Shown piece after piece: positions 27,349-64,000 of a stretch of 64,000 nt of DNA. The notes below the pieces were generated by a model, which was not told the DNA's origin, did no database searches, and was given only the letters and a program-made list of their open reading frames with translations. The translations under genes and the position numbers were made by a program. How positions within the stretch are numbered: the first letter of the stretch is position 1; each line of letters starts with the position of its first letter. The stretch lies in IMG/VR virus record IMGVR_UViG_2593339207_000001; one strand, written 5' to 3'. The stretch is from a virus.

Positions 27349-27972
27349 TTACGGTTGAATGGTTCGTTGCTCTGTCACGTCGCCGTAACCAACCGGCAGG
27401 ACAGCCGGTTGGCACGACCGAAGGTCGCCCCGCAGGGGTGGAGCACAGGGATGTGCGACATGAAACTGGAAGGTCCGGTCCCGGATCAGCCGACCGTCGC
27501 GCAGGTCGCCGTCGTACACCGGGCAGGATTCGATGCGGATGCGTCCGGAGCTTTGCCGGAGGTTGGAGAGGTTCACTCGGGCCAGGCCGCCCAGAGGAAC
27601 CAGTTCGGTAAGGTTCAGGCTGCCCTGGTCGGCGATGGCGATCTCCGGGTAAAGCTGGAGGAACCGCGATACCGACTCGTGAAAACCGAGCAGTTCGGCC
27701 TCCCGATCCACGGTTACCACCAGGTCGAAATCGAGGTGATAGAGCCGGGGAAGCCGGCACTCCTCGAAACTCAGCTCCGCGACATTCTTCTCGAACAGGC
27801 GGCTCTGGCTGCGGCGGAAACGGTCTTCCGTCAGCTTCGGCCCCTGGAGGATGACGCTGGGGGTACGCTGGACCTCGAACAGGTCATCCGGGAACACCAG
27901 CACGGTGTCCGGGTGGATGGCCTGCTTGGCCAGGCGGATCAGGGTTTCTGTGACGGTCTGTATCGTGCTCAA
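27349..27972 (-). CDS. Tail terminator / sheath terminator-like protein
   Basis: Position before sheath; PSVILQGP, LYHLDFDLVVT; carries a 25-aa repeat-derived insert. Confidence 0.6.
   Translation of the reverse strand: MSTIQTVTETLIRLAKQAIHPDTVLVFPDDLFEVQRTPSVILQGPKLTEDRFRRSQSRLFEKNVAELSFEECRLPRLYHLDFDLVVTVDREAELLGFHESVSRFLQLYPEIAIADQGSLNLTELVPLGGLARVNLSNLRQSSGRIRIESCPVYDGDLRDGRLIRDRTFQFHVAHPCAPPLRGDLRSCQPAVLPVGYGDVTEQRTIQP
27387..27460 (+). repeat. Multi-hairpin palindromic element copy C (antisense, in frame in its host gene)
   Basis: CCAACCGGC-AGGACA-GCCGGTTGG, CGACC-GAA-GGTCG, CCCC-GCA-GGGG, GCACA-GGGA-TGTGC. Confidence 0.75.
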
Positions 27973-27996
27973 GGGACGCCTCCGTTTTCTGCCTGG

Positions 27997-28028
27997 TTAC
28001 TTACCGGAAGCGCTGGCGATGTGTCGGA
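27997..28028 (-). promoter_or_regulatory. Class-1 promoter-like motif upstream of the terminator/sheath genes
   Basis: TCCGACA-N13-TCCGGTAAGTAA. Confidence 0.8.
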
Positions 28029-28031
28029 GGC

Positions 28032-28517
28032 TCAAAGCGCGGAGCGGATCGCCTCGCGATAGTTCTGGAGGATCTGCTCGCGGTACTTCTCCATCACCGG
28101 ATGCAGAAATGGTCTGGCGGGGATGATGATGGTCGCGCCGCTCGGATGTTTGATGGTGGCCCCGTACTCCATGACGGCACCGATGTTCACCATGTCTTCC
28201 CCGTCCTTGTTGACGGTGCCGCGCAGCAGGCCGACGAACGCCTTGTCGGTCATGATCTTCTGGGTGATGGCGTTGACGAGAAAGCCAGTGTCGATGAGCG
28301 CCTTGCTTGAGCCTTTGCGCTCGATGGTGCTTTCGGCGAGTTTCACGAAGGCCTGTCCGCCCGGGGCCTGGGAGCGAATCCCCCGCTGAATCTCACGCAC
28401 CAGAAAAAGGGCGTTGCGGATCGTGGCCTGACGCAGGGCCGTGGCCAGGCGCGGCCCCATGCCGGTGGTCAGCTTGGCGCGGGCCTTGTCCCAGTCACCG
28501 GTTCGCCTAACGCCCAT
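28032..28517 (-). CDS. Virion morphogenesis / tail completion protein
   Basis: LAESTIERKGSSKALIDTG...IPARPFL. Confidence 0.85.
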   Translation of the reverse strand: MGVRRTGDWDKARAKLTTGMGPRLATALRQATIRNALFLVREIQRGIRSQAPGGQAFVKLAESTIERKGSSKALIDTGFLVNAITQKIMTDKAFVGLLRGTVNKDGEDMVNIGAVMEYGATIKHPSGATIIIPARPFLHPVMEKYREQILQNYREAIRSAL

Positions 28518-28866
28518 TGAGCTTCACCAGTTGCAGGTTCTTGTGAGTGACGGTGCCGAAGAAGTGTTCTTCTTCCACACTCTGTATGCGATAGGTTTCC
28601 CGGTCTGCGTCCAGGCGGTCTTCACCCCGGACGTCGGCATCCGGAAGGACGCAGGCGAGCGCATCGATCTTGCCGCTCAGCTCCTCCGGCGGGGTTTCGT
28701 TCAGTTCGAGGGGGATGACAGAAACTTCTGAGTATTCGGCATCATCGGTGCCGTAGAGCCGCTCGCCGGGAACCACGCGCAGGATGCGTGCAGTCTGGCC
28801 CGAGGAGAGGATCAGCCGGGCGACGTCGGCCACGGCTTCGGCGCGTTCCCGGTCATTCAACAACAT
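28507..28866 (-). CDS. Head closure / stopper-like protein
   Basis: Size and neck-module position; C-terminal DRL..DRETYRIQSV pattern. Confidence 0.6.
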   Translation of the reverse strand: MLLNDRERAEAVADVARLILSSGQTARILRVVPGERLYGTDDAEYSEVSVIPLELNETPPEELSGKIDALACVLPDADVRGEDRLDADRETYRIQSVEEEHFFGTVTHKNLQLVKLNGR

Positions 28867-29317
28867 CGAGATCGATCCCTTGTTCGTAGATGACCGGCGC
28901 AAGTCCGCTCGGAGTCAGGATGTAGGCTTCCTGGTCGAGCTGGGTGGCCGGACGCAACTCGGTGAGCCGCTGCCGGTAGTCGGCGAGCAGATCGGCCTCG
29001 AGCTTGGCCCAGTGGCCGGGCTGGCCGGTTTTGTCCACCCTCTTGTCGCCGCTGGAAAAGGAGAAGGCGTTGGCGGTGGCCGAACGCATGACCTGGCAGG
29101 CGTGGATCTGCGCCATGATCACCAGGAGCTCGCGGACCTCGCCGGTGGGATCGGGGGTGATCTCTCCGGCCGTGATCGTCAGCGATTGGTCGAGGTCGCG
29201 GCCGACCCGGAAAACGGCCTTCCGGACGCATCTCTCCAGAGTCTGGTCCTCGAAGAGAGATGCGCCCGGATCGGACAGGTCGAGCCGCAGGTCGGCGATC
29301 AGGTCACTCAGCAGCAC
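28853..29317 (-). CDS. Head-tail adaptor-like protein
   Basis: LIADLRLDLSD...LFEDQTL...FSFSSGDKRVDK. Confidence 0.65.
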   Translation of the reverse strand: MLLSDLIADLRLDLSDPGASLFEDQTLERCVRKAVFRVGRDLDQSLTITAGEITPDPTGEVRELLVIMAQIHACQVMRSATANAFSFSSGDKRVDKTGQPGHWAKLEADLLADYRQRLTELRPATQLDQEAYILTPSGLAPVIYEQGIDLDVVE

Positions 29318-29738
29318 CTTGCAGGCCCTCCAGACGGCTCTTGAGCGCGTCGATCACCGTGCGGCGTTTCTCGGTATCCATGTAGCCCTTGAGGGTCTCC
29401 GGATTGGCCTCCTCGTTGACCCTGGAGATGGCGTCGGTGGCGGAGAGCTTGCTCAGGTCCACCGGTTCCGCGTCCTGGTCGGGCTCTGGAGGGGCGAGCG
29501 GTTCCTGTTTCGGTTTGTGTTCGCCCTCATCCATGGTGCTCACTCCTTCGGGGCCAGCCTTCGGCTGTCCAAATCCGCTCCCGGCGGATTTGTCGGCCAT
29601 GGCCAGGCGTCCGTTTTTCAGGGCAGCCTGGATTTGTTTGGTAAAGTGTTCCACCTCGACGACCTGTCCGGGCTTGAGTTTCAGCCCGGCGTCGGGGATC
29701 ACCAGAACGCCGGGACGGATGTTCTTGATTCGATTCAT
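29304..29738 (-). CDS. Capsid-adjacent accessory protein with a 25-aa repeat-derived insert
   Basis: Directly after MCP; C-terminal helical LSKLSATDAI...RRTVIDAL. Confidence 0.7.
   Translation of the reverse strand: MNRIKNIRPGVLVIPDAGLKLKPGQVVEVEHFTKQIQAALKNGRLAMADKSAGSGFGQPKAGPEGVSTMDEGEHKPKQEPLAPPEPDQDAEPVDLSKLSATDAISRVNEEANPETLKGYMDTEKRRTVIDALKSRLEGLQGAAE
29519..29594 (-). repeat. Multi-hairpin palindromic element copy A (in frame)
   Basis: GACAAATCCGCCGGGAGCGGATTTGGACAGCCGAAGGCTGGCCCCGAAGGAGTGAGCACCATGGATGAGGGCGAAC; ACAAA direct repeats 75 bp apart. Confidence 0.85.
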
Positions 29739-29757
29739 CTCACGTCACCTCCTAAGA

Positions 29758-30621
29758 TTACGGAACCAGTTTGACCTTGGCCATGATGTCGGGGCGGGTA
29801 ATGCCCTGGCCGATCTCGGACCACACCAGCCAGCCGGTCTTGAAGCGGGTCTTCTGGTCGATGGATTCCGTCTTCAGGTTTTCACGCACCGGCATCTTCC
29901 CGACCTCTTCATCCGGGACGATGATGATCTCGTCCAGCGGCATGGAGGCGGTCAGCAGAATGCCGCCGGTGCCGTAGTTCTTGATGACACCCTTCTGGCG
30001 CAGCTCGAGCTTGGTCTGGGGATCGAGGTTCCAGCCGCGCATGTCGTTGAACCGACGGCCACGCATGACGATGTACTTCACCGACAGCTCCAGGTCCTCG
30101 ATGATCGAGATGGCCTCGTTCAGTGCCTCTTCGGTGAGCAAATCGCCGGTGACCTCGATGATATTGGACGCCGGGATGGCTGAGGACAGCACCGAGATGG
30201 TGCGGCGGTCCATCTCCTTGCGGATGGCGTCGGCGGCGCTGGTCTGGATGTCCATCAGCGTGCCGATGTTGCCGTTCTTGAGAACGGAAACGTCCACCAT
30301 CGGGTTGGAGTGAATGCGGTTGGTGGGGAACTCGACCTCATCATTGCCCACCTCCTGCTCCTGGGCGTCGCCGTCCTTGCTGATCCAGTGGGCCTTGACG
30401 GTCGGTTTCTTCTGGTAGACCGGACGTTCGCCCTTGGGCAGCGTGTGCTTGGTGAGCAGCAGCGAGGAGATCTCCTTGCGCTTGATCTCCTGTTCGATGG
30501 GCGCGGCGATGGCGGCGGCAAGCGCCCGCATGCCTTCGGGCGACTCGAGAGCCTCGCTCATGAGCCGCGCCATGGTTTCCATGTATTCCTGGGAATGGAT
30601 CTTCAACTGATTGGTTTTCAT
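29758..30621 (-). CDS. Major capsid protein (HK97-like fold, inferred)
   Basis: 287 aa after protease and decoration genes; EVEFPTNRIHSNPMV...AIRKEMD pattern. Confidence 0.85.
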   Translation of the reverse strand: MKTNQLKIHSQEYMETMARLMSEALESPEGMRALAAAIAAPIEQEIKRKEISSLLLTKHTLPKGERPVYQKKPTVKAHWISKDGDAQEQEVGNDEVEFPTNRIHSNPMVDVSVLKNGNIGTLMDIQTSAADAIRKEMDRRTISVLSSAIPASNIIEVTGDLLTEEALNEAISIIEDLELSVKYIVMRGRRFNDMRGWNLDPQTKLELRQKGVIKNYGTGGILLTASMPLDEIIIVPDEEVGKMPVRENLKTESIDQKTRFKTGWLVWSEIGQGITRPDIMAKVKLVP

Positions 30622-30639
30622 GTGCGTTGGCTCCTTGGG

Positions 30640-31002
30640 TTAGACGAGCAGGCGGAATTTGAGGACGCCGCTCTGTACGGAAATGGCGTGGGCGACCACG
30701 TGCTCTCCGGCCGCGACGCCGTTGGTCAGCCGACCGCTCGCCGAAACTTTCAGGTCGTCTCCGGCGACGACGGTCCCTTCGAAGGCGTCGGTCTCGTAAA
30801 CGCCGCCGTCGCAGTAGATGCCGGGCATTTCGCCACCGGCGTAATCCTTGATCAGGATGCCGAAGGAGCGCTTGGTGGGATCGGTGTTGACGGCGAACAG
30901 GTCGTCGCCGACCACGCGAACCACCTGGCCGAGCTGGCCGTCGCCCTGGATGTGGCCGTCGCCATAGGCGAGGCTGCGGTGACACGGATTGATGAATGAC
31001 AT
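30640..31002 (-). CDS. Capsid decoration / cement protein
   Basis: 120 aa between scaffold and MCP; GGVYETDAF...GDDLKVSASGRL. Confidence 0.7.
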   Translation of the reverse strand: MSFINPCHRSLAYGDGHIQGDGQLGQVVRVVGDDLFAVNTDPTKRSFGILIKDYAGGEMPGIYCDGGVYETDAFEGTVVAGDDLKVSASGRLTNGVAAGEHVVAHAISVQSGVLKFRLLV

Positions 31003-31014
31003 GGTGTTTCCTCC

Positions 31015-33426
31015 TTATGCGTTGATTTGCGAGTGTTCGGGAGAGTCCTCGCCGACACGGTTGCGGTAAGCGGCCATGAGCCCGTCGCGCAGACGGTCCT
31101 CGAGCGACACCTTGCGGTCGTCTACATCGTGGGGCCGAACACCGGCGTCGCTGCGCAGCGGGGTTTCCGTCGATGCCTTGGCGGCGGGCTTGCCGCCCTG
31201 GTCGCTGTCAGCGGGTTTCTCTTCCTTGTCCTTGTCCGCCTTGGCCGACTTGGGCAGGCGCTCATAAGCGGCTTCGGTGGCGGCGAAGGCTTCGTCGGAC
31301 AGTTCGGCCAGGCGTTTCAGCTCGGCTTCCCGGTCCTCATCGGACGCAAAGGAGAGCCCCTGCTTCTCCAGCCGGGTGAGCAGTTTCTTGGCGCGGGAAC
31401 GGCAAGCGGCCGCCTTTTGTTCGGCTTCCAGTTCCTGGACGCGCTTCTGCAGCTCGGCGACCTGGGCCTTGAGCTGCCGGTTTTCCTTTTCCAGGTCGGT
31501 AACGCGAGCGGGATCGCCTTCCTGCTGGGCCGGTTTCTTCTTGGCCGCGTCTGATTCGGTCTTGGCGGCCTGGTCATCGGTGGGTTTGGTTTTGTCTTCC
31601 ATCGTGGAATCTCCTTCGGGTTGGGATTGGTCGGGCTGGCTCTGAAGGGACGCCACCTGCAGAATCCTGGCGTTCTCGTCCGCGCCTTTGCGGTCGAGCA
31701 GTCCCAGTCCAGTGAAAGTGACGCCGTGCAGAATCTCGAAAACGGGTTGGCCGTTGAAATCACGGCCCTTGAATTTGCGCAGGTGGGTGCAGTAGTCGGC
31801 CTTGTTCTGGAAGCGCTTGTGGCAGACCGAGCATTCGCCCTCCTGGTAGTCGCATTCCATGGAGACCTGGGAGATGATCCCGCGCTTCATCAGCTTGTAG
31901 GCCAGCCGGGCGGCCGGGGTGTCGTGGACGTACAGCTCGCCGACGCATTCCACGCGGCCGCCGTTGTCGTCCTCCAGGTAGTCGGCGGCGACGATGCCGC
32001 CCACGATGTCGTTGAACTCCTGCGAATGCTGCAGATCGACCTTCTTGTTCACGGCCGTCATGTGCCGACCGGACAACTCCTCGGCGGTGAAGTGATCGCC
32101 GTTCTTGTTGGTCCCGGTGCGGCAGAGCACGAAGCTGAACTGGGGGTCGCCCGCCGAACCGACATCCATGGCCTCGGTCGCGAGGCGTTCGCCTTCGCCC
32201 AGCCGGATGTCCACGGGAATGCTGGTGTGGAAGTTCGCGGCGGCGGCCATCGGAACGGGTTTCTCCTCCCGCTCGGCGCTGGCCTTGGCCCCGGGAGCGC
32301 AGACGAACAGACGCTCCTTGGCGTTGGAAGCCTCGCCGTGCTTGGAGGTGATGGCGTAGTGGTGATCCTTGGACTTCATCCGGCTCTGCTTGCCGAAGGA
32401 GCCGATGATCCGCTTCATCTCCTGCTCGTTGGGATAGGCGTGATCGCGGTAGGAAATCAGCCAGTGCGGAATGTGTTTGGCGTTGCCGAGAAAGGTCTGG
32501 AAGAACTCGTTGGCGTTAGCCTTGGTGACGGTCTTGTGGTCGGTCTCGTAATACTTGACCTTGGTGTCGGCCTTGATTTCGAGCCCTTCCCAATAGGTCA
32601 TGAGCCCCTCCACGAAGTGGTAGGCCCGCTCGTAGTTGGTGGTCGAAAACTCGGTGGCGTAGGGCGGATCGAAGTAGGCCAGATCCGCCTTGGCTTTCGG
32701 CAGCAGGTCGTTGATGTCCTGCCGGTATGCCTTGTTCTCCTTGTCGTTGTCGAAAACCAGGGCGTTGATACGCTGCAGGTTCTTGCGCAAGCGATCCTTG
32801 AACTCGTCTGGGGTGTCCTGGCGGCGGCCATAATCGGTGGACGACGAGAAGTGGCCGAAACCGCCCTTGCCGCTCATGCAGGTCTTGCCGAGGCCGAACA
32901 GGGCGATGTCTTTCTTGAAGCCGGAGAGCTTGTCGCAGTTGGCGCGGATGGTGTCGATCAGCGCATGGACGCCCTTTGCGAAGAAGATGCCCTTGAAGTT
33001 GTCCTGAACGAAGCTGCCCGCCTTGGCGTTGTCGGCCAGGAGTGCCTCGATCTCGTCCTCGCTCAGGCGAACCGAGTTATTCTCGATGATCGCCTTGGCG
33101 GCGTGGTGGCAGTAGCGGAGCCGGTCATTGGCGATGACCTGCAGGCCCTTGGTCTTGTACATGTAGGCCACGACCGCAGACCCCGAAAAGGCGTCCAGCA
33201 CCGTGCCAGCGCCTTCCGGGGTATGCTTCCAGATCCAGTCGACGAGCTTCTGCTTACTGCCGATGTAGTTGGTGATGTACTTGGGGCGTTTCTCGGGAGG
33301 GAGCTCTTCAGGAGCGGACTGTTCGGCGGCCTCGGTCCCGAGCGCATCGGGATCGAGAGTCAGCGCCGCATCGGCCTCCAGTAGAAACGCCAGCCTTTCC
33401 AGGTCTGTGGCGAACAGTTCCATCAA
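31015..33426 (-). CDS. Fusion of D12/Dam-class DNA adenine methyltransferase, predicted prohead protease and scaffold
   Basis: NYIGSKQKL, VLDAFSGS, YFDPPY (MTase); DLQH and QVSMEC (protease-like); acidic coiled-coil tail. Confidence 0.85.
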   Translation of the reverse strand: MMELFATDLERLAFLLEADAALTLDPDALGTEAAEQSAPEELPPEKRPKYITNYIGSKQKLVDWIWKHTPEGAGTVLDAFSGSAVVAYMYKTKGLQVIANDRLRYCHHAAKAIIENNSVRLSEDEIEALLADNAKAGSFVQDNFKGIFFAKGVHALIDTIRANCDKLSGFKKDIALFGLGKTCMSGKGGFGHFSSSTDYGRRQDTPDEFKDRLRKNLQRINALVFDNDKENKAYRQDINDLLPKAKADLAYFDPPYATEFSTTNYERAYHFVEGLMTYWEGLEIKADTKVKYYETDHKTVTKANANEFFQTFLGNAKHIPHWLISYRDHAYPNEQEMKRIIGSFGKQSRMKSKDHHYAITSKHGEASNAKERLFVCAPGAKASAEREEKPVPMAAAANFHTSIPVDIRLGEGERLATEAMDVGSAGDPQFSFVLCRTGTNKNGDHFTAEELSGRHMTAVNKKVDLQHSQEFNDIVGGIVAADYLEDDNGGRVECVGELYVHDTPAARLAYKLMKRGIISQVSMECDYQEGECSVCHKRFQNKADYCTHLRKFKGRDFNGQPVFEILHGVTFTGLGLLDRKGADENARILQVASLQSQPDQSQPEGDSTMEDKTKPTDDQAAKTESDAAKKKPAQQEGDPARVTDLEKENRQLKAQVAELQKRVQELEAEQKAAACRSRAKKLLTRLEKQGLSFASDEDREAELKRLAELSDEAFAATEAAYERLPKSAKADKDKEEKPADSDQGGKPAAKASTETPLRSDAGVRPHDVDDRKVSLEDRLRDGLMAAYRNRVGEDSPEHSQINA

Positions 33427-33479
33427 CGTCTCCGGTCAGTTTGCTGTGCTCTCCGCGACCTGCGGGGAGCGTTCAGCGG

Positions 33480-33511
33480 TTACTTACCGGAAGCGTCGTT
33501 GATGTGTCGGA
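33480..33511 (-). promoter_or_regulatory. Class-1 promoter-like motif upstream of the MTase-protease/capsid operon
   Basis: TCCGACA-N13-TCCGGTAAGTAA. Confidence 0.8.
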
Positions 33512-33651
33512 GGGTGACGGAGAATTTCAGCGGGTGGGGTTCAGCTGGAAATTTCCTGGAAGTTGCCGAGATTTGGCTTGAAAATCGGATTGCTATTCGC
33601 TATCTTGTGTTATCATGTTTTATTACGGAATCCAGAAAAGCGGTGACTGAC

Positions 33652-36368: not shown

Positions 36369-37931
36369 TCAGGAACTCGCCTTCACCTGATGGAGAATCC
36401 ACTTCCTGAGCGTTTCCTCGGTCGCCAGCCGGATCAGCGCCTCGACGAGCTGCTGTTTGTTCTTGAGGATGCCGATGCCGTGCTTCTGTTTGGCCGCCGC
36501 GAGTTCCTTGCCCATCAGGCCGCTGTGGTCCACACCGGGCTCCAGCTTATCCAGCAGCTCGATGGTCTCCTGTTTGGTCATGTTGAGGGAGATGCCGTTC
36601 TCCTTCGCCATCTCCTTGAGCTGCTGGGCAGTCATGCCCCCCAGCCCCTCGGCGGGAGGGATCTTCGCCATCTGGGCGGCGAGCAGCTTGGCCTGTTTGA
36701 GTTCCGTCTGCTTCAGTCCGAGCAACTCGACCAGTTCTTCCTTGGTCCGCAGCAGACCGATCTTGTGTTCCTTGAGCTTGGCGCTGAGCGCCGCTCCGGC
36801 CAGGTCGCCGTGATCGATCCCCGGTTCAGCCAGATCGAGCAGCTTGATGAAATCGGCCTTGGTCCGGGCAATGGCCACGCCGTTCTGTTTCGCCAGGGTC
36901 TGGAGCTGTTTGACCGTCAGCGAGCCGAGGTCGGCGATGTCGCCGTTTTCAAAGGCGCTCTTGATCTTGGCGTTCTCCTTGGCCTGGGCGTCGGCCATGC
37001 CTTCCAGCACATGGGGCGGGAGAATGCAGGCGTCCCCCTGCGATGCCTGGGCGGCTGCCTGGGCGGCCATCTCGCTGCCGCAGACGGTCATCGGCCAGGC
37101 CACGATGTTGGTGCAGCGGCAGTGCGGATGCGCGGGTTGCTGAGGGAACTTGTCGATGGGAAAGGTCTTGCCGTCCAGGCCGCCGCAGACCGGGCACATG
37201 CGCTCGTCCTCCATGGCCAGCCATTCCAGCTTCTGGATGCCGACCCGCTCGTGGAACTTGAGCCTGCCCATGTTGTGGGCGCGGAGTACCTCGGTGCGGG
37301 CGATCATCTCCATGCGGTACTGCGCCTTGCTGAACACCCGGCTTCCGGCCTGGCGAAAGGAGTCCTTGTCGACGATCACCTTGCCCATGTCCCGGACGAT
37401 GTCGTCGGCTCCCTTGCCTGTGGCGACGCCGTTCAGGATGGTGCGCTTGATGCCGTCTGCGAGTTCGCGGTGGACGTCACCGGCGAGCGTGAGGTTGTAC
37501 TGCGCCATGAAGTCGAGGGCATTGGTGTCGACGATGGTGAACACCTTGGTGGCCAACTTGTCGATGCCCTCGGGCTTCAGGTCGGCGTAGAACGGCAGCG
37601 CCACGTCGGCGAGCTCTCCGATTCCCTGCTGGATGCCGAGCTTGAAGGAGTCCTTGGTCGTCTTGCGAAAGACCAGGGTCTGCTCCCGTTTGAGCCGCTT
37701 CATGGTGTCGTCGAGTTCGAGCTGGAGCTTTTCCAGCCCCTTGAGAGCGGCGAGCTTGTTGTCCGGCAGGGAGCCGAGGGAGCGGTACTGGAGGATGGCG
37801 CGGGCGACCTCGTCTTCGGCCTGTTTCAGCGCCTGGGTGAGCTGGGCCGTGACCTGGTCGTTGTAGCGGTTGCGAGCCGTCAGACTCTTCAGTGTGGCCG
37901 CCTGGATGCGCTGCTTGAGGTCCGACGGCAT
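36369..37931 (-). CDS. MuF / SPP1 gp7-like head morphogenesis protein with HeH/SAP-like repeats
   Basis: EMIARTEVLRAHN...EDERMCPVC...QPAHPHCRC, then two tandem double-helix-pair repeats. Confidence 0.88.
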   Translation of the reverse strand: MPSDLKQRIQAATLKSLTARNRYNDQVTAQLTQALKQAEDEVARAILQYRSLGSLPDNKLAALKGLEKLQLELDDTMKRLKREQTLVFRKTTKDSFKLGIQQGIGELADVALPFYADLKPEGIDKLATKVFTIVDTNALDFMAQYNLTLAGDVHRELADGIKRTILNGVATGKGADDIVRDMGKVIVDKDSFRQAGSRVFSKAQYRMEMIARTEVLRAHNMGRLKFHERVGIQKLEWLAMEDERMCPVCGGLDGKTFPIDKFPQQPAHPHCRCTNIVAWPMTVCGSEMAAQAAAQASQGDACILPPHVLEGMADAQAKENAKIKSAFENGDIADLGSLTVKQLQTLAKQNGVAIARTKADFIKLLDLAEPGIDHGDLAGAALSAKLKEHKIGLLRTKEELVELLGLKQTELKQAKLLAAQMAKIPPAEGLGGMTAQQLKEMAKENGISLNMTKQETIELLDKLEPGVDHSGLMGKELAAAKQKHGIGILKNKQQLVEALIRLATEETLRKWILHQVKASS

Positions 37932-39511
37932 CAGCGGGGCTCCCGGCGGTCGATGAAACGACAGGCCGGGGCGTCGAAAGTGCGCTCGCTGTTGTGGACC
38001 CGGCAGTGGTTGGTGTCAGCAATAAAGTGGCTGCACTCGTCGCACACGGCAGCATCGCCGGTGGACTCCAGGTCGCCCGACCAGACTAATGCCGCCTCCG
38101 CCGTGGGTTCATCGTCCTCGGCCGGAATCCCGAGCATCTTCCGGGCGCGAGGCACGCTGAGGATGCCGGAGACGACCATATCCACCACCGGCTTCACCTG
38201 TTTCTCGTCCATCAGGTCGATCTGTTTACGTTCGGTCTCGCGGTTGGCGGCCTCGATGTCCGGGTCCAGGTCCATCTTGAGCTGAAGGCTGGAGCGGCTG
38301 ATGAGTTTGCGGTCGTAGAGTTCGATGAGGAGCTTCTTGAAATCGACCGCGTCGCTGGGGTCGAGGTCGTTGAAGATAAACTGGATGCTTTTGTCGCCGT
38401 GGCCATTCAGCTCCATCCAGTCGTCGAACACCCAGTCGAGGAGCTTGCGTGCGGCCTGTTTGATCTCGCGGATCATGACCATCATCTTCTGCATGCTCAC
38501 CGAGGCGGTGGCGAAATTCGGGCCGTCGCCGGTCACCAGCGAGCGTGACAGGCCCAGGGCCACCACGATGTCTTCCTTCACCTCCTTGACCTTGTCCTCG
38601 ACGTTGAGGACCTGACCGTCGGTGCCGTGGGTTTCGACATTGACGTAGAACGGGACCACCAGACCGCTTTTCATATCCATCTTGTTGACCATGTCGCGGA
38701 CCTGTTCGAGCATCCGCTGGTCCGGCATCACCATCTTCTGGCCAAACGCGCCGCCCACCTTGAGCAGACGAAAGGGCGTTGCCCAGCGCTTGGCGATGGC
38801 CTGTTCGGCCCGGCGGTAGTCGCGCAGCAGTTCGATGGCCTGAAAGGCGGGAAGCACGAGGGAGTTACCCCGGGGCGAAAAGGCCGGAGCATCCCATTTA
38901 AGGTGGAGCACCTGTTCGACGGGCAGAGGAATGGATTCCCCGCCGCCGGGGGTGTCCTCGGGAAATTGCCGGGCCTCGATCAGCTCGCCCTGGGCGTATT
39001 TGACCTTGACCGAGACCGGGTTGACGCAGACCAGCTCCTCGATGTCCTGGCCGGACTTGGTGAAGCGCTTGAAGCCGATGGCATCACCTTTCACCAGGAG
39101 CTGAAGAACCATGTCCTTGATGAATTGCGTGATGTTCAACCGCCAGGCGGCCTCCAGTGCCTGCTCCTTGAGGGTCTCGTCATCGCTGGTGATTTTGATC
39201 TCGTCGCCCACGGCGAAGGTGCGCCAGGAGTTGACACAGTTCTTTACCAGCGGCTCCTCGACGTAGTATTCCCAGGCCTTACGGGCGCGTTCTTCCCAGG
39301 TGGTAGGAATCGCTTCGGCGGCGTTCACCTTGGCGAAGGCGGCCGAGTCGAGCGCTGCCGCTGCGGCCAGCGGCGCGATGACAAAGCCGGTGGTGTCCAG
39401 GCTTTGATGGAAACCATCCTTGGTTTCCACCCTTCGGGCAGCCTGCGGCTGTCCAAATCCGCTCCCAGCGGATTGGTCGGGTTGTTCGTCCTGATGGGCG
39501 GTGCTTTCCAC
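37931..39511 (-). CDS. Portal protein
   Basis: About 526 aa between terminase and MuF; GTG start with GAGGA RBS; VNPVSV, HLKWDAPAFSPRG. Confidence 0.8.
   Translation of the reverse strand: MESTAHQDEQPDQSAGSGFGQPQAARRVETKDGFHQSLDTTGFVIAPLAAAAALDSAAFAKVNAAEAIPTTWEERARKAWEYYVEEPLVKNCVNSWRTFAVGDEIKITSDDETLKEQALEAAWRLNITQFIKDMVLQLLVKGDAIGFKRFTKSGQDIEELVCVNPVSVKVKYAQGELIEARQFPEDTPGGGESIPLPVEQVLHLKWDAPAFSPRGNSLVLPAFQAIELLRDYRRAEQAIAKRWATPFRLLKVGGAFGQKMVMPDQRMLEQVRDMVNKMDMKSGLVVPFYVNVETHGTDGQVLNVEDKVKEVKEDIVVALGLSRSLVTGDGPNFATASVSMQKMMVMIREIKQAARKLLDWVFDDWMELNGHGDKSIQFIFNDLDPSDAVDFKKLLIELYDRKLISRSSLQLKMDLDPDIEAANRETERKQIDLMDEKQVKPVVDMVVSGILSVPRARKMLGIPAEDDEPTAEAALVWSGDLESTGDAAVCDECSHFIADTNHCRVHNSERTFDAPACRFIDRREPR
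39406..39478 (-). repeat. Multi-hairpin palindromic element copy B (in frame in the portal N-terminus)
   Basis: GACCAATCCGCTGGGAGCGGATTTGGACAGCCGCAGGCTGCCCGAAGGGTGGAAACCAAGGATGGTTTCCATC. Confidence 0.85.
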
Positions 39512-39585
39512 GTGATCCTCTCGGTAGTTTCGGCCATGACAGCCGCACATCCGGCCCGTGTGGGCCGAACCCGGCTCGATGCCGG

Positions 39586-57574: not shown

Positions 57575-57626
57575 AATAAAAAACGCCGGATCGCGCCTTC
57601 ATTGGGGAAGGCGCTACATCCGGCGT
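57575..57626 (-). terminator. Terminator-like hairpin after the QueC-like gene
   Basis: ACGCCGGAT/ATCCGGCGT outer stem, GCGCCTTC/GAAGGCGC inner stem, then TTTTTTATT on the minus strand. Confidence 0.7.
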
Positions 57627-57690
57627 CGCAATGGCTACATTTGGCGTAGCGGAAATTTTTTTTAGTTTTTTCTTCCTGGGTGGTCCCGGG

Positions 57691-59793
57691 TCACTCGTTG
57701 ACTATCGGGCGGACCTCCCAAACGATCTCCTCTTCGGTCCGGTAGACCGGTTCGTTGCCGCACTTGATGGACTCCTTCAGGTGGGCGGCCAGCGGCTTGT
57801 CATACTTCTCCAGATACGTGATGGCCCGGTTCACGGCGTTCCGGAAGGCGTCGCGGATGTTCTTCCGCTTGTCGTTGGATTTCCGGAGTTTGCCACCCAG
57901 ACCAACCGCCTCGTTGATTGCTGTGGTCACCTTTGCCATTTCTTCTTCAAGCCGCTGAATCTCGGCAGCGTTGTTTTCTGCTCGTGCGTCTTCAATTTCT
58001 CGAAGAAGATCGTGAGCCGCCTCCCGGTACTGCTCGATAGCCTTGCGGTCGGCGACGAAGCCGGTATCGCCCAACGGAACCCCCTGGGTGACCTGAAAAC
58101 CGTCTTCGGTTTCATCAGAGTTCAGAAACGTGTTGCAGGTATTGATGGCCAACCCGCAGACGATCTCGTAGACCGAGGTTTCCTTGTTGGGCCTCGCCAG
58201 AAGGAAGTTGATGTACTCGGCTCCTTTGTCGACACCCGTCACGAGCACCTCGGCATTGCCGTTAAAGCGTGCGGCCCAGACACCCCCGCGCTTCCTGAAG
58301 TAGTTGTCCGGCTGCTTCTGCTCGACCGGAATAGCTGGGACAGAGATCACCGATCCCGATTCATAGACCGTCCGAAGCAAACAGTCTCCCGGCAAGGTGC
58401 GCTGACGGATGGCCGTGATGTTGCGGGCGACCATGGTGTCCATCGCTTCGCAGACCTCCTTGGCGTGGCGTTTGTAAAGGTCATAGACCTTCTGGGCCAC
58501 GCTTCCGGGGTTCCCATTCAAGTAGCGGAAGACCCGACTTACCTCGCTGAATCGAGCGATAAACTGGGTGATGTCATCCTGATCACGGACCTGGTTGGCT
58601 CGCTCCAGGTACGCGGCAGCCATGATCTTGTCCTCGTCCTTGCTTCGACTTTGGGTGAAGATATCGGCCTTATAGTCTTCCACGGGGTCATGCTGATCCG
58701 CTTTTGCCGCAATCATGGCAAAACGCCTGTCGATGCACTGCGAACACGTTCCGCAATGCGTATGGTGATTGGTCATCTCCCAGGTATGGGTGCAGGTGGT
58801 CGATGCCGCGATCATGTCCTGGCATCCGGCCTTGGTGATCACCTCGATAACACCGGCCTTGGTTTTCCAGATGTAGGGATTCTCAATCGTGAACGGTTCG
58901 CCAGCCACCAGGCTGATGATTTCCTGAAAGCCTCGGATCACCCTGGGGTGGGTGGTGCGTGTTGCCCGGCCGCCGACTACCTGAGCGCAGACCGGCAGAT
59001 TCAAACTGATGACCCCGTTTTCGTAAAAACGGACGCTTTTCAGATTGAGCATTTTTGCGATGGTCGCCCCGATAGACACATAAAGGAAGGATCGGCTGCG
59101 CTGGGTGTACTCGTAGTTCAGGCCCTTGTTCTTGTTGACCCGGACGCCGATGTGTAGCGGGGCGTTTTCCCCAGCCTTGTCGGCAATCATCTTTTCCAGG
59201 CGGCGGTGGCGCTTGTTGAGTTTCGGGGTTGACTTGTGGGTCACCAGGACGACCCGGTGCTTTTCGTTCAACACCTCGTCGATAGCTCCGGCCAGCGAAT
59301 CCAGGCCGCCTGAAAACATCACCACCTGTTCCGGATAACCGAGAAGACGCCCGTCATCGTTGAAGTCCAGATAGCCCTGGAATGCCTGAGCCTCTTTCAG
59401 TTTGACGAACTCGAAGTGATAGTTGTCGTCAGACAAGAAACCAAGCGTGGAGCGCAGCGCCTGGTGGATATCGTCTCCGTTCCAAAAATCTGGCTTCCGC
59501 ACCGGGATGATGAAGTGCAGATCCCTGCGCCAGCCATGGCCAAAAGAATCGACGTCGTCGGCCCCTCGTGGGATGGCCTGATCGGCACTGTAAACGTAGG
59601 TGGCGATTTCGAGCAGGTCCTGGAAAGAATCAGGCACGTCCTTGCTCATCTTTTTGTGGATGTCTTCAATGCGTAGGGTGATCTTGTCCGGCCCATCCTT
59701 ACCCCAAAGGCGCAGGCGCAGATCACGGTCAGGATTTTCTTCAATCCCATCGGTCGGTGCGTTCCCACAGATGATATATCGTTTATCTTGCAT
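57691..59793 (-). CDS. QueC/QatC-like PP-loop enzyme with C-terminal predicted DNA-binding domain
   Basis: DLLEIATYVYSAD...WRRDL N-domain, SGGLDS, TQRSRSF, CTH...HCGTCSQC; about 190-aa extension. Confidence 0.85.
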   Translation of the reverse strand: MQDKRYIICGNAPTDGIEENPDRDLRLRLWGKDGPDKITLRIEDIHKKMSKDVPDSFQDLLEIATYVYSADQAIPRGADDVDSFGHGWRRDLHFIIPVRKPDFWNGDDIHQALRSTLGFLSDDNYHFEFVKLKEAQAFQGYLDFNDDGRLLGYPEQVVMFSGGLDSLAGAIDEVLNEKHRVVLVTHKSTPKLNKRHRRLEKMIADKAGENAPLHIGVRVNKNKGLNYEYTQRSRSFLYVSIGATIAKMLNLKSVRFYENGVISLNLPVCAQVVGGRATRTTHPRVIRGFQEIISLVAGEPFTIENPYIWKTKAGVIEVITKAGCQDMIAASTTCTHTWEMTNHHTHCGTCSQCIDRRFAMIAAKADQHDPVEDYKADIFTQSRSKDEDKIMAAAYLERANQVRDQDDITQFIARFSEVSRVFRYLNGNPGSVAQKVYDLYKRHAKEVCEAMDTMVARNITAIRQRTLPGDCLLRTVYESGSVISVPAIPVEQKQPDNYFRKRGGVWAARFNGNAEVLVTGVDKGAEYINFLLARPNKETSVYEIVCGLAINTCNTFLNSDETEDGFQVTQGVPLGDTGFVADRKAIEQYREAAHDLLREIEDARAENNAAEIQRLEEEMAKVTTAINEAVGLGGKLRKSNDKRKNIRDAFRNAVNRAITYLEKYDKPLAAHLKESIKCGNEPVYRTEEEIVWEVRPIVNE

Positions 59794-60571
59794 CGGCTCG
59801 CGCTCCTTCTTTTAGCTCGTCCTTCATCTTTTTCAGCGCGTAAGAGGCGAAGCCATTGGAAGACTCCCTGGAGATGTCACCACCTTCTTCGTACCTGTGC
59901 TTCGAAAACCAATCTGCTGAAAACTGCTCGACGATCAGGGACGCCTCTTTACAGTGCGTGTTCAGAGCCTTCTCGAATTGTTCCATTTCATTCATGGTGG
60001 CAAAGCGCTGGCCCTCGCCAAGATGGGTAGCCAGCGTTTTTGAAAGGAAGTAGTTCATGCTCTCGTTGGTCAGCTTGGCGAAGAAAGTCCGCGACAGCTC
60101 TCCGAACTCTCGCTTTTTACCGAGCGCCGCCAGTGCGGCCCGAACATCATCTGGCCCGGGGGCGAAGAGAGACGGCAGTTTTGGTGAGATGTGCTCTACC
60201 AGGGCTCCGACCAATGCACGCTGAGACATTTCACCGAGGTCGGATCGGCCACCGTTGGACTCCAATTTGTTATCCAGGGCCTCGGAGACTGCGGCGGCAA
60301 GATCGGGAAGGGATGTATCCTGCGGCAGGTTGACGCCGAGGGATTGGAGATGCTCGCCGAGGTTCTCCTTTTTTGCGGCAATGGCGAGCTGCGTCATCAA
60401 CCAGACCGCCTCGGTGAACCCCTCATCGTTGAGCACGAAGGTGAATGCTTTATCGGCTGCCCGGATTGTTGCGTTTGCGATTTGGGACACGTCGGCACCG
60501 GCCGTGATCAGGCCGACCACCTCTTTCCATGCCCTCGACCTCGGAAGGCTTCCAAGTCTGACGTGCCCCAT
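59783..60571 (-). CDS. QatB-like helical protein with N-terminal Gly
   Basis: 262 aa, all-helical composition, starts MG, overlaps the QueC-like start. Confidence 0.55.
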   Translation of the reverse strand: MGHVRLGSLPRSRAWKEVVGLITAGADVSQIANATIRAADKAFTFVLNDEGFTEAVWLMTQLAIAAKKENLGEHLQSLGVNLPQDTSLPDLAAAVSEALDNKLESNGGRSDLGEMSQRALVGALVEHISPKLPSLFAPGPDDVRAALAALGKKREFGELSRTFFAKLTNESMNYFLSKTLATHLGEGQRFATMNEMEQFEKALNTHCKEASLIVEQFSADWFSKHRYEEGGDISRESSNGFASYALKKMKDELKEGARADAR

Positions 60572-60604
60572 GTCGATCTCCTTATTTTTCGCGACCCAGC
60601 ATCG

Positions 60605-60838
60605 TTACTCGGGCCTCCTGATGACGACGATGCTTCGGGCCTTACGAGCTTCTTTCTTCAGATAGCCTTTCCGTACCAGTTGAGCGATCTGCTCGTGGGC
60701 GCTCGCGTGGCTGATACCAAGGACTTCCGACAATTCTTTCACCGTTGGCGGCAACCCCTTTTCATCGATGATTTGGCAAATGACCCTCAGCGTGTTTGCT
60801 TGTGGGTCGGTTATTTCCGATACCTTTCCCTTTCCCAA
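60605..60838 (-). CDS. LexA DNA-binding-domain-only repressor candidate
   Basis: GLPPTVKELSEVLGIS...LVRKGYL..EARKARSI; no peptidase domain. Confidence 0.85.
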   Translation of the reverse strand: MGKGKVSEITDPQANTLRVICQIIDEKGLPPTVKELSEVLGISHASAHEQIAQLVRKGYLKKEARKARSIVVIRRPE

Positions 60839-60903
60839 GGCGATTGCTCCGTGTCGTAGCCACTGAGCGGATTAAGCCCAATTTATGACCACAAAATATA
60901 CGA

Positions 60904-60919
60904 CCTGATGAACATCAGG
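60904..60919. promoter_or_regulatory. Palindromic operator candidate in the divergent control region
   Basis: CCTGATG-AA-CATCAGG. Confidence 0.5.
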
Positions 60920-60949
60920 CCAATAAAAAAACAGGACTTCTCGTCTGAT

Positions 60950-60981
60950 TCCGTCATCTTGCACGTCCCTCCGGTAGGTAA
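60950..60981 (+). promoter_or_regulatory. Class-1 motif on the plus strand facing the recombinase module
   Basis: TCCGTCA-N13-TCCGGTAGGTAA. Confidence 0.65.
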
Positions 60982-61045
60982 CGAACGCAAGTCCGGTTCA
61001 AGCCGGATGTAACCAGATAACCGACCAGAGGCGGAGCTGAGGCGG

Positions 61046-61375
61046 TTGTGGGTGCCATCGAACGCGCATCCCGACCGCCGCCGTTTTCTGGCATCCACGC
61101 CATCCAGCCCCCGGTCCAACCGGAGGTGTTCGATGTTGGATGTACAGGAAATGAATGATGGGCCAGGGACGGATGACCTTGGCAAAAACGGCAAACCCGG
61201 CCGCCTGTCGGGTGAGGCGAGGCTCCAGTCAGCCGCCTCCATTCTGGCCACGGCGATCCTGCGCCGAAAGGCAAAAAACGCATGTGTGGGCAATGAGTTA
61301 GATGCTTTCGAAGATTCTTCCCCTGTGCTCGGAGAAGGACTTGATTCATTGCCGGAACAGAGCATTCATTCATGA
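61046..61375 (+). CDS. Possible small hypothetical protein (start uncertain)
   Basis: C-terminal helical RLQSAASILATAILRRK; lies between the class-1 motif and DUF2924. Confidence 0.4.
   Translation: MWVPSNAHPDRRRFLASTPSSPRSNRRCSMLDVQEMNDGPGTDDLGKNGKPGRLSGEARLQSAASILATAILRRKAKNACVGNELDAFEDSSPVLGEGLDSLPEQSIHS
61339..61374 (+). promoter_or_regulatory. Class-2 promoter-like motif upstream of DUF2924
   Basis: ACTTGATT-N5-CCGGAA-N3-AGCATTCATTCATG. Confidence 0.6.
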
Positions 61376-61409
61376 CAACTCGTCCGGAAACCAAAATAAG
61401 GAGTTGAAA

Positions 61410-61934
61410 ATGAATGAGTTACACAACGCCGCCACCGGCGGCAAGAATCAGGACCGAACCCGAAACTCGGTCCTTCGGCAGATGGCCCTGCTGCAATCCA
61501 TGTCCCTGGAGCAGCTCCGGGAAAAATGGCTCGACCTCTACGGCGAAGAGCCGCCCCAGTACAAAAAGCAATTCCTCATCAAGCGGCTGGCCTATCGCAT
61601 CCAGGAGCTTTTCTACGGCGGGCTGTCCGAGCAGGCCAAGGTCCATCTCCAGCAGGCCGCCAAGGAGGACCCGGTAGCCACTGTCAATCGACGCATCCCA
61701 GAAGAGCGGAAATCGAACGAGGCGCTCCTGCCCGGGACCAGACTGGTGCGGGTCTGGAACGACCGGCGCTATGAGGTGATCGTCCTTGCCGATGGCTATG
61801 AGTTCGAAGGCCGCACCTTCCGGTCGCTCAGCGCGGTGGCCAGGGAGATCACCGGGACGCGCTGGAACGGCAAGGTCTTTTTCGGGCTGAAGAAGGTTTA
61901 CGGCAGAAAAGCCGAAGGAGGTTCGGATGCTTGA
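61410..61934 (+). CDS. DUF2924 family protein
   Basis: LREKWLDLYG...LAYRIQELFYGGL...PGTRLVRVW...SLSAVAREITGTRWNG. Confidence 0.92.
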   Translation: MNELHNAATGGKNQDRTRNSVLRQMALLQSMSLEQLREKWLDLYGEEPPQYKKQFLIKRLAYRIQELFYGGLSEQAKVHLQQAAKEDPVATVNRRIPEERKSNEALLPGTRLVRVWNDRRYEVIVLADGYEFEGRTFRSLSAVAREITGTRWNGKVFFGLKKVYGRKAEGGSDA

Positions 61935-63513
61935 TAACAGCAATGTAGCGCCGGGCAAAAACAAGACCCTGCGCTGCGCCATCTACACCCGCAAGAGTCA
62001 TGAGGAAGGGCTCGAACAGGAGTTCAACTCGTTGGATGCGCAACGGGAGTCGGCGGAACACTATATCGAATCCCAGAGGATGCGGGGCTGGACGGCTCTG
62101 CCGGATCGCTACGACGATGGTGGTTTCTCGGGTGGGAACATGGAGCGCCCGGGGCTGCGCCGCCTGCTGGAGGACATCGATGCCGGGAAGATTGACGTGA
62201 TCGTGGTCTACAAGGTCGACCGGCTGTCCCGCTCGCTGCTGGACTTCATGAAGATGATCGACCTCTTCAACGAGAAGGGTGTCAGCTTCGTCTCGGTCAC
62301 CCAGCACTTCAGCACCACCGACCCCACCGGCCGGATGTTTCTCGGCATCCTGATTACCTTCGCCCAGTACGAGCGGGAGGTCATCGCTGAACGTATCCGG
62401 GACAAGGTGGCGGCCGCCAAGCGCCGGGGGAAATACTGCGGCGGCGTGCCCATCATCGGATATGACGTCGACCGGGAGAACAAGAAGCTGCTGGTCAACC
62501 CCGATGAGGCCAGGACGGTGCAGTACATCTTCCGCCGCTTCATCCAGATCGGCTCGGCCAAGAAGCTGGGCCAGGAATTGAACGAACAGGGATACCGGAC
62601 CAAGGCCTGGACCACCAAGAAAGGCAAGGTGCGCGAGGGCTCCGAATGGAACACCGCCCACATCTACCGGCTGCTCAACAACCGGATCTATATCGGCGAG
62701 ATCGCCCACAAGGATCGCAGCTACCCCGGGGAGCACGATGGGATCATTGACCGGGCGACCTGGGACAAGGTGCAGGTCATCCTGGAGGACAACAAACCGG
62801 TCAAGATTTCCATGGCCAGAACCAAAATGGTCGCCCCGCTGAAGGGCGTCATCCGCTGCGGCCACTGCGGATGCTCGATGGGACCGACCTACGCCCGCAA
62901 GAACGGCCGCCACTACACCTATTACATCTGCCAGAAGGACAGCAAGCGGACCGTGAGCCGGTGTCCGCTCAAACGGATTCCCGCCGGGGACATCGAGCAG
63001 GCCGTGGTCGAGCAGTTGAGCGCGGTGTTCCGCACACCGACGCTGGTGGCCAAAACCTTCTTTGCGGCCCGGGACATCGAGCAGGTGGAGCGGGAGCGGC
63101 TGTTCAAGCAGAAAGCCCAACTCGAGATGGAGCTGTCGCAGGCGCGGGAGCAAGCCCTCGAACTGATGAGGCCCGGCAACGATCAGCCGGGCAAGGCCGA
63201 GATGCTGACAACCGTCAACCGCCAGGCGGTCGAGCTCTCGAAACAACTGACGCACGTGAACGAGCGATGCAGAGCCTACCAGGGGAACAGCATCACGGAA
63301 CAGGATGTTTCGGAGGCCTTCCAGAATGTCGAAGGCTTCTGGGAAGACCTTTTCCCGGTGGAGCGAAACCGGCTCATCCGCCTCCTGGTGGATAAGGTCG
63401 AGATCCGCGAGACCGGAATCGACATGGAGTTGCGCACCAACGGGCTGACAACGCTCATCGCCGAACTGGCTGGGCTGGCATGCGAAGTCACCGAACGGAG
63501 GGCAATTCGATGA
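61927..63513 (+). CDS. Large serine recombinase (resolvase + recombinase + zinc ribbon)
   Basis: CAIYTRKS, DGGFSGG...RPGL, VDRLSRS, CGHCG...YYIC...C. Confidence 0.96.
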   Translation: MLDNSNVAPGKNKTLRCAIYTRKSHEEGLEQEFNSLDAQRESAEHYIESQRMRGWTALPDRYDDGGFSGGNMERPGLRRLLEDIDAGKIDVIVVYKVDRLSRSLLDFMKMIDLFNEKGVSFVSVTQHFSTTDPTGRMFLGILITFAQYEREVIAERIRDKVAAAKRRGKYCGGVPIIGYDVDRENKKLLVNPDEARTVQYIFRRFIQIGSAKKLGQELNEQGYRTKAWTTKKGKVREGSEWNTAHIYRLLNNRIYIGEIAHKDRSYPGEHDGIIDRATWDKVQVILEDNKPVKISMARTKMVAPLKGVIRCGHCGCSMGPTYARKNGRHYTYYICQKDSKRTVSRCPLKRIPAGDIEQAVVEQLSAVFRTPTLVAKTFFAARDIEQVERERLFKQKAQLEMELSQAREQALELMRPGNDQPGKAEMLTTVNRQAVELSKQLTHVNERCRAYQGNSITEQDVSEAFQNVEGFWEDLFPVERNRLIRLLVDKVEIRETGIDMELRTNGLTTLIAELAGLACEVTERRAIR

Positions 63514-64000
63514 AAAAATCGTCTGGAACTATTTTTGACGCCCGACAGGGCGGCCCCGAAGGGGTTAGCCTCAGGGATGGGGCGAACAAAATGAAGCCGA
63601 CCATTACCGTAGCCGACAACGGCAACCTGCAGATCCACATCCCGATGCTGATCCGGCGCATGCGCGGCCGCAAGACGGTCATCGCTCCCCAGACCCTGGA
63701 TGGAGAAATCACCGGAGCGCAGGAACCGGTGCAGTCCGCCGTCCTCCAGGCGCTGGGCAGGGCCTTTTCCTGGGCCGACATCCTCGAATCCGGCCAGATC
63801 AAGTCCATCAGCGAGCTTGCCCGTACCCTCGACGTCGATGGCTCGTATGTGGCCCGCATTCTCAAGCTGACGACCCTGGCCCCCGACATCGTCGAAGCCC
63901 TGATCAACGGTGAGGAACCCAACGGGCTCTCGCTGGCCAAACTGACCCAGACCTTCCCGGAGGACTGGGCCGAGCAGCGCCGCCAGTTCGGCTTTGCCAC
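63510..64000 (+). CDS. Recombinase-associated HTH-like protein (3' end cut by the window edge)
   Basis: Open frame from ATG 63510 (or 63591): RAFSWADILESG...SISELARTLDVDGSYVARILKLTTLAPDIVEA. Confidence 0.85.
   Translation, partial: MKKSSGTIFDARQGGPEGVSLRDGANKMKPTITVADNGNLQIHIPMLIRRMRGRKTVIAPQTLDGEITGAQEPVQSAVLQALGRAFSWADILESGQIKSISELARTLDVDGSYVARILKLTTLAPDIVEALINGEEPNGLSLAKLTQTFPEDWAEQRRQFGFA
63512..63587 (+). repeat. Multi-hairpin palindromic element copy D (in frame)
   Basis: GAAAAAATCGTCTGGAACTATTTTTGACGCCCGACAGGGCGGCCCCGAAGGGGTTAGCCTCAGGGATGGGGCGAAC. Confidence 0.75.

Follow-up and report, generated by a model that had tools for sequence, protein, structure and literature searches.

A short four-hairpin repeat inserted in frame into genes of a temperate phage and found in several bacterial groups

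Introduction

Four genes of the virus recorded in IMG/VR as IMGVR_UViG_2593339207_000001 contain a short segment that can be folded into a run of hairpins, and each gene stays in frame through its segment. This raises the question of whether the segments are original parts of these genes or insertions into them and, in the latter case, what kind of element was inserted and how it moves. The stretch of DNA analyzed, hereafter the window, is 64,000 nt in length. A first-pass annotation of the window, made from the sequence alone, had proposed four copies (here c1–c4) of a non-autonomous structured element, and had compared them with Rickettsia palindromic elements and REP-like repeats. The same phage occurs with and without the inserts, so that the direction, precision and target of insertion, and the positions at which it is tolerated, can be read directly.

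Results

Six copies of the repeat in the host genome

A covariance model (CM) was built from five copies (c1–c5) and run against the whole 3.7-Mb genome of the host (G000). The five copies scored 80–88 bits (E 1e-17 to 1e-19), and a chance origin of the repeat is excluded by these scores. The genome contains six copies in total, the next-best match being no better than E 0.04. Four are those of the first-pass annotation, found at the places it gave and with their exact limits now read from empty sites in near-identical prophages (Table 1). Searching the host genome for further copies, as it had recommended, added c5 and c6, and others were found in many genomes. On alignment, c1–c4 have ~73% of columns in common, and pairwise identity among the six copies is 60–83% (17–40% difference). 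The host genome is not a reservoir of the repeat, since it holds the single further copy c6, which itself lies within horizontally mobile DNA.

Copy c5 lies beyond the last phage gene; ~365 nt separate it from the 3′ end of the transfer-messenger RNA (tmRNA) gene. An initial length estimate of 72 nt from BLAST overlaps was replaced by anchor counting, which gave 73 nt against the relative in G004 and 70–72 nt against other relatives, as the neighboring runs of C and A vary.

Each copy is an insertion relative to close homologs

A six-frame search with the portal protein showed that the portal frame, 552 aa in the window, is 528 aa in homologs of 98–99% identity from other genera, other families and one other order. 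Alignment of the DNA placed a clean 72-nt gap in these relatives precisely at c3. All of c1–c5 are absent, leaving clean empty sites, from 94–99% identical prophages in five genomes (G101, G058, G004, G209 and G233), and c3 is also absent from the prophage of G195. Two relative prophages carry zero copies over their whole sequence. The phage DNA flanking the copies is 94–98% identical to that of phages without them.

The empty site of c1, GCCGT|GAAACTGG (the bar marks the junction), was found in seven related loci and differs from the filled site by 75 nt. That of c2, GGCCGACAAA|CCGAAAC, was found in six related loci with a 75-nt difference and a 5-nt junction ambiguity, and that of c3 reads AACCCGA|AAGCCTGG. 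The c4 site, CGATGAAAA|TGAAGCC (MKMKPT...), is empty by 75 nt in ten related loci and in the IMG/VR contig L037. Contigs from four public sequencing runs (a bioreactor, an electrolysis cell, an oil field and one organism-labelled run) join position 27385 to 27461 at c1 and 39404 to 39477 at c3, skipping exactly 75 and 72 nt. For c6, which lies outside the prophage in a PglZ defence gene, orthologs of 91–93% identity lack the copy, with exactly 75 nt missing. Compared with very close homologs, all copies in this genome are insertions; the first-pass proposal would have failed had all homologs contained the segments, and close homologs without them were found at clean empty sites. Contig L037, a relative of this phage, has c5 in place and the c4 site empty, and the insertions were therefore separate events.

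Short contigs in three of the four public runs cover the interior of c1 (27425–27433), at a depth below that of the empty-site contigs. They could come from a filled c1 allele or from a close relative of this copy at another place in the samples.

Table 1. Positions of the six copies with their empty sites, the genes that hold them, and other features of the prophage. Positions are those of the window unless another sequence is named; the bar in the empty site marks the junction.
Feature	Position	Strand	Empty site	Description
Copy c1	27386..27460	+	GCCG(T)|GAAAC	75 nt; antisense to host gene; CM 87.6 bits
Copy c2	29518..29592	-	GCCGA|CAAAC	75 nt; sense to host gene; CM 80.5 bits
Copy c3	39405..39476	-	CCCGA|AAGCC	72 nt; sense to host gene; CM 86.1 bits
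Copy c4	63514..63588	+	GATGA|AAATG	75 nt; sense to host gene; CM 82.5 bits
Copy c5	window-equivalent 64057-64129	-	GAAGA|AAAGC	Non-coding, 60 nt past window end; first found by BLAST with one copy
Copy c6	G000:C1:961563-961644	-	CCGGA|ATACG	47 bits; in frame in PglZ defence gene
c1 host gene	27349..27972	-		Tail/neck-module protein, adjoins tail-completion/Neck1 gene 28032-28523; coding-type third-position GC
c2 host gene	29304..29738	-		144-aa protein directly downstream of major head protein gene
Major head protein gene	29758-30639			phrog_2522, E 2.5e-97
c3 host gene (portal protein)	37931..39550	-		phrog_2739, E 1.8e-81
Large serine integrase	61927..63513	+		phrog_95, E 3e-127; stop overlaps start codon of c4 host gene
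c4 host gene (small 'recombinase' family protein)	63510..64000, on to 64007 past window end	+		phrog_14161, E 2.8e-55
Window-specific segment	33883-36365			Eco57I-type methylase and XhoI-family endonuclease
Window-specific segment	39811-41121			AAA_14/DUF4143 gene directly upstream of portal gene
Window-specific segment	L208 1780-3138, left of window start			DruA-like protein with DDE_Tnp_1-associated domain

Junctions and target

No target duplication is present at any of the six sites for which empty and filled states could be compared. The position of the junction is ambiguous by 1 base at c1, c3, c5 and c6, and by 5 (c2) and 4 (c4) bases of chance A-rich identity. When the junctions are drawn to give each element a terminal CA, the target is GA|A at five of the six sites, and the element begins with C or A and ends with (A/G)(T/A)CA. 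In the six copies with junctions, the two ends are not inverted repeats of each other. The GA|A motif recurs at T-loop-like TTCGA|AT sites and in the backbone of a larger repeat, both described below. Insertion is thus precise, free of duplication and biased in sequence.

Four hairpins with covarying stems and fixed loops

One strand of the 72–75-nt element forms four consecutive hairpins (H1–H4). H1 has 9 bp; H2 has 5 bp and a loop of 3–4 nt; H3 has 3–4 bp of CCC/GGG; and H4 has 5–7 bp closing the loop A-N-GGAUG. The first-pass description of three hairpins and a GGATG tail was accordingly right as to the shared multi-hairpin layout, and is amended in that a fourth hairpin exists, with GGAUG as its loop. 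GGA stretches are near-invariant in the H1 loop, in the H1–H2 linker GGAC and in the H4 loop, and 70 of 86 full-length family members have all three.

In an alignment of 93 distinct family members, 91.6% of the cells in the four helices pair, as compared with 30–43% when the partners are slid; this alignment was fitted to the model, which biases it toward the structure. Double compensatory changes occur at 21 of the 26 pairs, and none of 500 shuffles reached the observed values. Covariation is seen in H1, H2 and H4. The compensatory stem changes noted earlier from four copies are therefore real. Stems vary freely, and the loops and linker do not. The outer H4 pair is G-U in 78 of the 93 sequences and an inner pair is G-U in 14, and such G-U/G-T pairs on one strand point to a single functional, strand-specific folding strand.

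A search of Rfam 15 at gathering thresholds gave no match in the window. Sub-threshold matches reached 15–19 bits (RsmY at 15.4, sX7 and AaHKsRNA22), against gathering thresholds of 40–57.

Host genes and tolerated positions

By third-position GC, the real genes between 24.4 and 57.6 kb are on the - strand and those from 61.3 kb onward on the + strand, and c2, c3 and c4 are therefore sense, and c1 antisense, to their host genes. In-frame insertion of c1–c4, as proposed, is borne out by homologs that lack the segments. Copy c1 adds 25 aa, read from its antisense strand, to the C-terminal tail of its host protein, twelve codons ahead of the stop. Copy c2 adds 25 aa to a low-complexity, Pro/Glu/Asp-rich interdomain linker, and c3 lengthens the portal protein by 24 aa in its N-terminal tail, ahead of the conserved domain; the phrog_2739 match begins at residue 74 of the stop-to-stop frame, past the insert. 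Copy c4 follows the second codon of its gene. The phrog_14161 profile starts near a second ATG at 63591, and relatives begin MKMKPT; this protein is probably the directionality partner of the integrase. Copy c6 lies ahead of the PglZ domain in a protein of 735 aa. The inserted peptides (24–25 residues) are not conserved, as strand and register vary between copies. The c1 host gene matched nothing in PHROG or Pfam, and its earlier label of 'tail terminator' is unverified.

The possibility that the repeat is an intergenic leader, in which GGATG would supply a Shine-Dalgarno sequence and start codon, was rejected: c1–c4 lie in frames that are continuous in relatives, and at c3 the ATG of the loop is out of frame.

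Multiples of three

The five coding inserts (c1–c4 and c6) measure 75, 75, 72, 75 and 75 nt, and the non-coding c5 ~73 nt. If lengths were free, five multiples of three out of five would be expected ~0.4% of the time. Among ~90 family members, lengths range over ~71–77 nt with no excess of multiples of three; they were measured by CM columns, which are 1–3 nt off per copy, and were used for the shape of the distribution only. Tandem arrays have a 74-nt period. Since the family shows no such excess, the arrays repeat at 74 nt and the non-coding copy has ~73 nt, the multiple of three is a filter left by selection in coding DNA and not a trait of the family. The earlier suggestion that a length of this kind lets the element colonize genes holds insofar as all five coding copies in this genome have it, but the length is not a property of the family.

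Distribution and arrangement of the family

A pattern scan found at least 120 loci in named genomes. The carriers include Gammaproteobacteria, Desulfuromonadales, Desulfobulbales and Zetaproteobacteria. Among the matches listed are Thermomonas and other Xanthomonadaceae, Aeromonas and Pseudaeromonas, Pseudomonas, Saccharospirillum, Acidiferrobacterales and Competibacteraceae, Desulfuromonadales, Desulfobulbus and Desulfatiglandales, Zetaproteobacteria, Bacteriovoracaceae and Rhodobacteraceae. In the host's order 18 of 151 genomes carry the element, among them 13 of the 17 in one family, many copies lying at contig ends, and it was not found in the six other genomes of the host's family. Pattern scans of IMG/VR gave one contig as their sole match, a relative of this phage.

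The majority of the family is intergenic. In-frame residence was seen for five of the six copies in G000 and for one in Desulfobulbus sp. Tol-SR, where an HTH_17 protein, encoded beside a type I methylase gene, has it at its C-terminus. A complete gammaproteobacterial chromosome (G413) has at least 50 dispersed copies, including head-to-head pairs, which are spaced 13–18 nt there and in G414, and direct tandems. Tandem arrays comprise 3–6 units, with a head-to-tail array of six.

The element is also nested, at a fixed place, in a ~240-bp MITE (miniature inverted-repeat transposable element) that has its own inverted termini, CATCCGGAAAC/GTTTCCGGATG (L023 1390-1640, also L011-L013, L016-L018, L111 and L116). 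Where the same backbone occurs elsewhere (L019 and Desulfatiglandales copies), the element occupies another position and its usual one is empty, and it therefore nested into the MITE independently. Genomes of one Desulfuromonadales family contain 10–15 or more copies each of the 240-bp MITE, which breaks many assemblies there. Its flanks in the host's order are identical to those in Desulfuromonadales, the order to which the host presumably belongs.

In Xanthomonadaceae, Aeromonadaceae and Saccharospirillum, repeated units were observed downstream of tRNA and tmRNA genes (L086 5480-6020, L095 1940-2240, L115 5600-5960, and L113). Each unit combines a terminator with an inverted copy of the 3′ end of the gene and with a direct copy that is T-arm-like, and the element splits the TTCGA|AT loop of this T-arm-like copy, a duplicated gene end. 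Another locus (L220, G413:C1:2848980-2849330) has two tandem 166-nt units whose beginnings resemble a class II tRNA in its 5′ half (GGAGAGGTGGCAGAGCGGTTGA), with the element inserted in the would-be D-loop of each.

Discussion

Comparison with known systems

Rickettsia is known to have palindromic repeats that sit in frame (PMC10969869), and for the four-hairpin family neither an Rfam 15 entry nor a literature description was found. The literature search took in studies of palindromic elements lying in frame within prophages, and of RsmA sponges in Xanthomonas. No match was found among the 'multicopy nucleotide sequences' of the Geobacter/Pelobacter genome papers in their accessible texts, and a motif search of the Pelobacter supplements was empty.

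The closest analogs are those anticipated by the first-pass annotation, namely REP/REPIN repeats and Rickettsia palindromic elements (RPE). REP/REPIN sequences are mobilized in trans by RAYT (TnpA-REP) transposases of the Y1 HUH type (PMC3116915, PMC2817692, PMC8266576). Like them, the element is a short GC-rich structured repeat with freely covarying stems, found as singlets, inverted doublets and clusters, with no terminal inverted repeats or target duplications. However, a REP is a single imperfect palindrome of ~20–40 nt with a GTAG-type tetranucleotide and a flanking RAYT gene, whereas the element packs four different hairpins into 72–75 nt, lacks GTAG, has the conserved unpaired letters GGAC and A-N-GGAUG, is not adjacent to any Y1 gene examined, and keeps a recognizable sequence across several phyla. 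RPE are ~100–150 bp in length, are confined to Rickettsia and encode conserved peptides (PMC10969869). They resemble the element in being palindromic repeats that sit in frame within protein-coding genes and add a peptide while function is kept. The element differs in having half the size, in occurring in many bacterial groups, and in giving peptides that vary with frame and strand.

IS200/IS605 elements and their miniature derivatives move by single-strand 'peel and paste' (PMC3201880, PMC5027513). Like the element, they insert precisely on the 3′ side of a short specific sequence, duplicate no target, and have strand-specific subterminal hairpins; the right end of the element (TCA) also resembles its target (GA). 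The left hairpin of the element, in contrast, is at the junction and not ~19 nt inside, its end hairpins are dissimilar, and it has two extra internal hairpins. Among RNAs, sX7 (Xanthomonas), AaHKsRNA22 (Aggregatibacter) and RsmY resemble it in architecture only, as a run of small hairpins, and the final hairpin of sX7 (GGCGCC-ACGGAC-GGCGC) resembles H4. RNAs of the CsrB/RsmZ type share the presence of several GGA motifs in hairpin loops, of which each element unit has three.

A small element moved in trans

We consider that the copies are probably a small, non-autonomous, structured mobile element that is moved in trans. The empty sites, the further copies and the covariation support the earlier proposal of a non-autonomous structured repeat inserted into working phage genes. 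Several features together suggest a single-strand mechanism of the HUH type: no target is duplicated, terminal inverted repeats are lacking, folding is strand-specific, and C(GNA)G mini-hairpins and head-to-tail arrays occur. A protein would read the folded single strand, cut it and rejoin it, as HUH/Y1 enzymes do for REP/RAYT and IS200/IS605. Insertion would hit anywhere, and the survivors in essential genes would be those that are multiples of three, free of stops and in tolerant spots, here the second codon, a tail at either terminus and an interdomain linker. Head-to-tail arrays would follow, since the right end (TCA|) resembles the target (GA|). Because the copies are 60–83% identical and all lie within horizontally mobile DNA (the prophage and a defence gene), they appear to have been acquired from a diverse active pool in earlier hosts, not in a burst in this genome.

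Several observations weigh against movement in trans by such an enzyme. No mobilizing enzyme was found. The expected RAYT or IS200-type partner beside the copies did not materialize: an unfiltered CM search around 18 Y1_Tnp loci in eight genomes (G000, G010, G048, G090, G104, G413, G414 and G415) gave no real element match, and this check took in the sole Y1 gene of the genome with at least 50 copies. Near the Y1 genes examined, there was likewise no autonomous relative in which the element's ends enclose a TnpA gene. A transposase within the prophage was also considered and rejected; as the first-pass annotation had stated, the window holds none, and the three window-specific segments bring as extra cargo an XhoI-type restriction-modification pair, an AAA_14/DUF4143 gene and a DruA-like gene. 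The geometry is unlike that of IS608, with H1 0–3 nt from the left junction and dissimilar from H4. In G413, with dnaA at 1.045 Mb, the copies number ~16 - to 10 + on one side and 8 - to 8 + on the other, without the clear strand switch expected if the element targets the lagging strand; this is weak evidence, a hand count of 50 copies from an incomplete list, with origin and terminus assumed. Finally, the conserved GGA loops could equally be a feature at the RNA level.

The host genome has 26 Y1_Tnp (IS200/IS605-type) matches, of which seven are identical chromosomal copies and several are on a 242-kb second replicon. None of them is associated with the element or among the CM hits.

Alternative explanations

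The conserved loops lead to the alternative that the element is in the first place an RNA module, for example a CsrA/RsmA binding platform, that spread by selection; mobility is compatible with this account, which we judge unlikely. Three GGA motifs stand at fixed places, all of them in most members, and the H4 loop A-N-GGAUG is closed by a stem (c1: CACAGGGAUGUG), a hairpin which we take to be close to the high-affinity CsrA hairpin of SELEX (in vitro selection) work. The arrays of 3–6 units look like sponges of the CsrB/RsmZ type, the G-U pairs point to one functional strand, and each of the five element-bearing genomes tested has csrA, but this gene is common in these groups anyway. The Rfam matches to RsmY and to sX7 and AaHKsRNA22, small RNAs known from RNA-seq, point the same way but score far under the gathering thresholds. 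Moreover, c1 runs antisense to its mRNA, the coding regions of portal and defence genes have no evident need of a regulator site, and the unit has no promoter or terminator of its own. An RNA function would also leave the precise insertion at GA|A unexplained. C(GNA)G triloops are classic stable DNA mini-hairpins, which likewise counts against an RNA module.

Two further accounts concern the direction and the enzymology of the events. The segments might be ancestral in the phage genes and have been lost by the relatives through precise deletion or excision, and since peel-and-paste elements do excise precisely (PMC5027513), empty sites alone give no direction. We regard such loss as very improbable: it would require five clean losses in each of at least five prophages and in four metagenomic populations, L037 carries a single copy (c5), the element family is also found in unrelated genes and phyla, and the portal and recombinase profiles start past the inserts. 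Derivation as a classical MITE from an insertion sequence with a DDE transposase is hardly credible. Such an origin would fit a small, non-coding, multicopy repeat that breaks short-read assemblies, leaving many copies at contig ends. The element, however, has the ends C(A/C)AAT... and ...(A/G)TCA in place of terminal inverted repeats, and shows no target duplication at six sites controlled by empty sites; the inverted termini of the 240-bp MITE of Desulfuromonadales belong to the outer element.

Returning to a mobile element moved in trans, we tentatively propose a more specific and rather speculative form of it. The repeat may be an undescribed cross-phylum miniature element whose four-hairpin strand is recognized by an enzyme other than an adjacent RAYT/IS200-type TnpA, and which inserts at GA|A, including in T-loop-coding DNA of duplicated tRNA/tmRNA ends; its GGA loops might then be a portable CsrA/RsmA site. 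There is a real chance that the mobilizing system is new, and finding the enzyme could add a new small DNA-insertion system. If it is true that the GGA loops bind CsrA, mobile DNA would seed regulator sites across genomes. As for the phage, the portal, head-associated and tail-module proteins and the recombination partner each accept 24–25 residues at their ends or linkers, a tolerance that bears on phage engineering and on repeats as a source of protein novelty.

Prophage context

Essentially the same ~64-kb prophage (window 402-64500; relatives L171-L207) was observed at 94–99% identity in at least four families and two orders, and its portal region in public runs of 17 studies covering bioreactors, sludge, oil field, sediment and soil. 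Such a spread is unusually wide for one temperate phage. The prophage is integrated at the 3′ end of the tmRNA gene (L001 4499-4855, window-equivalent 64499-64855, - strand; tag ADNDVSYALAA), and similarity to the IMG/VR relative ends at 64507. All three window-specific segments (Table 1) are missing from related prophages.

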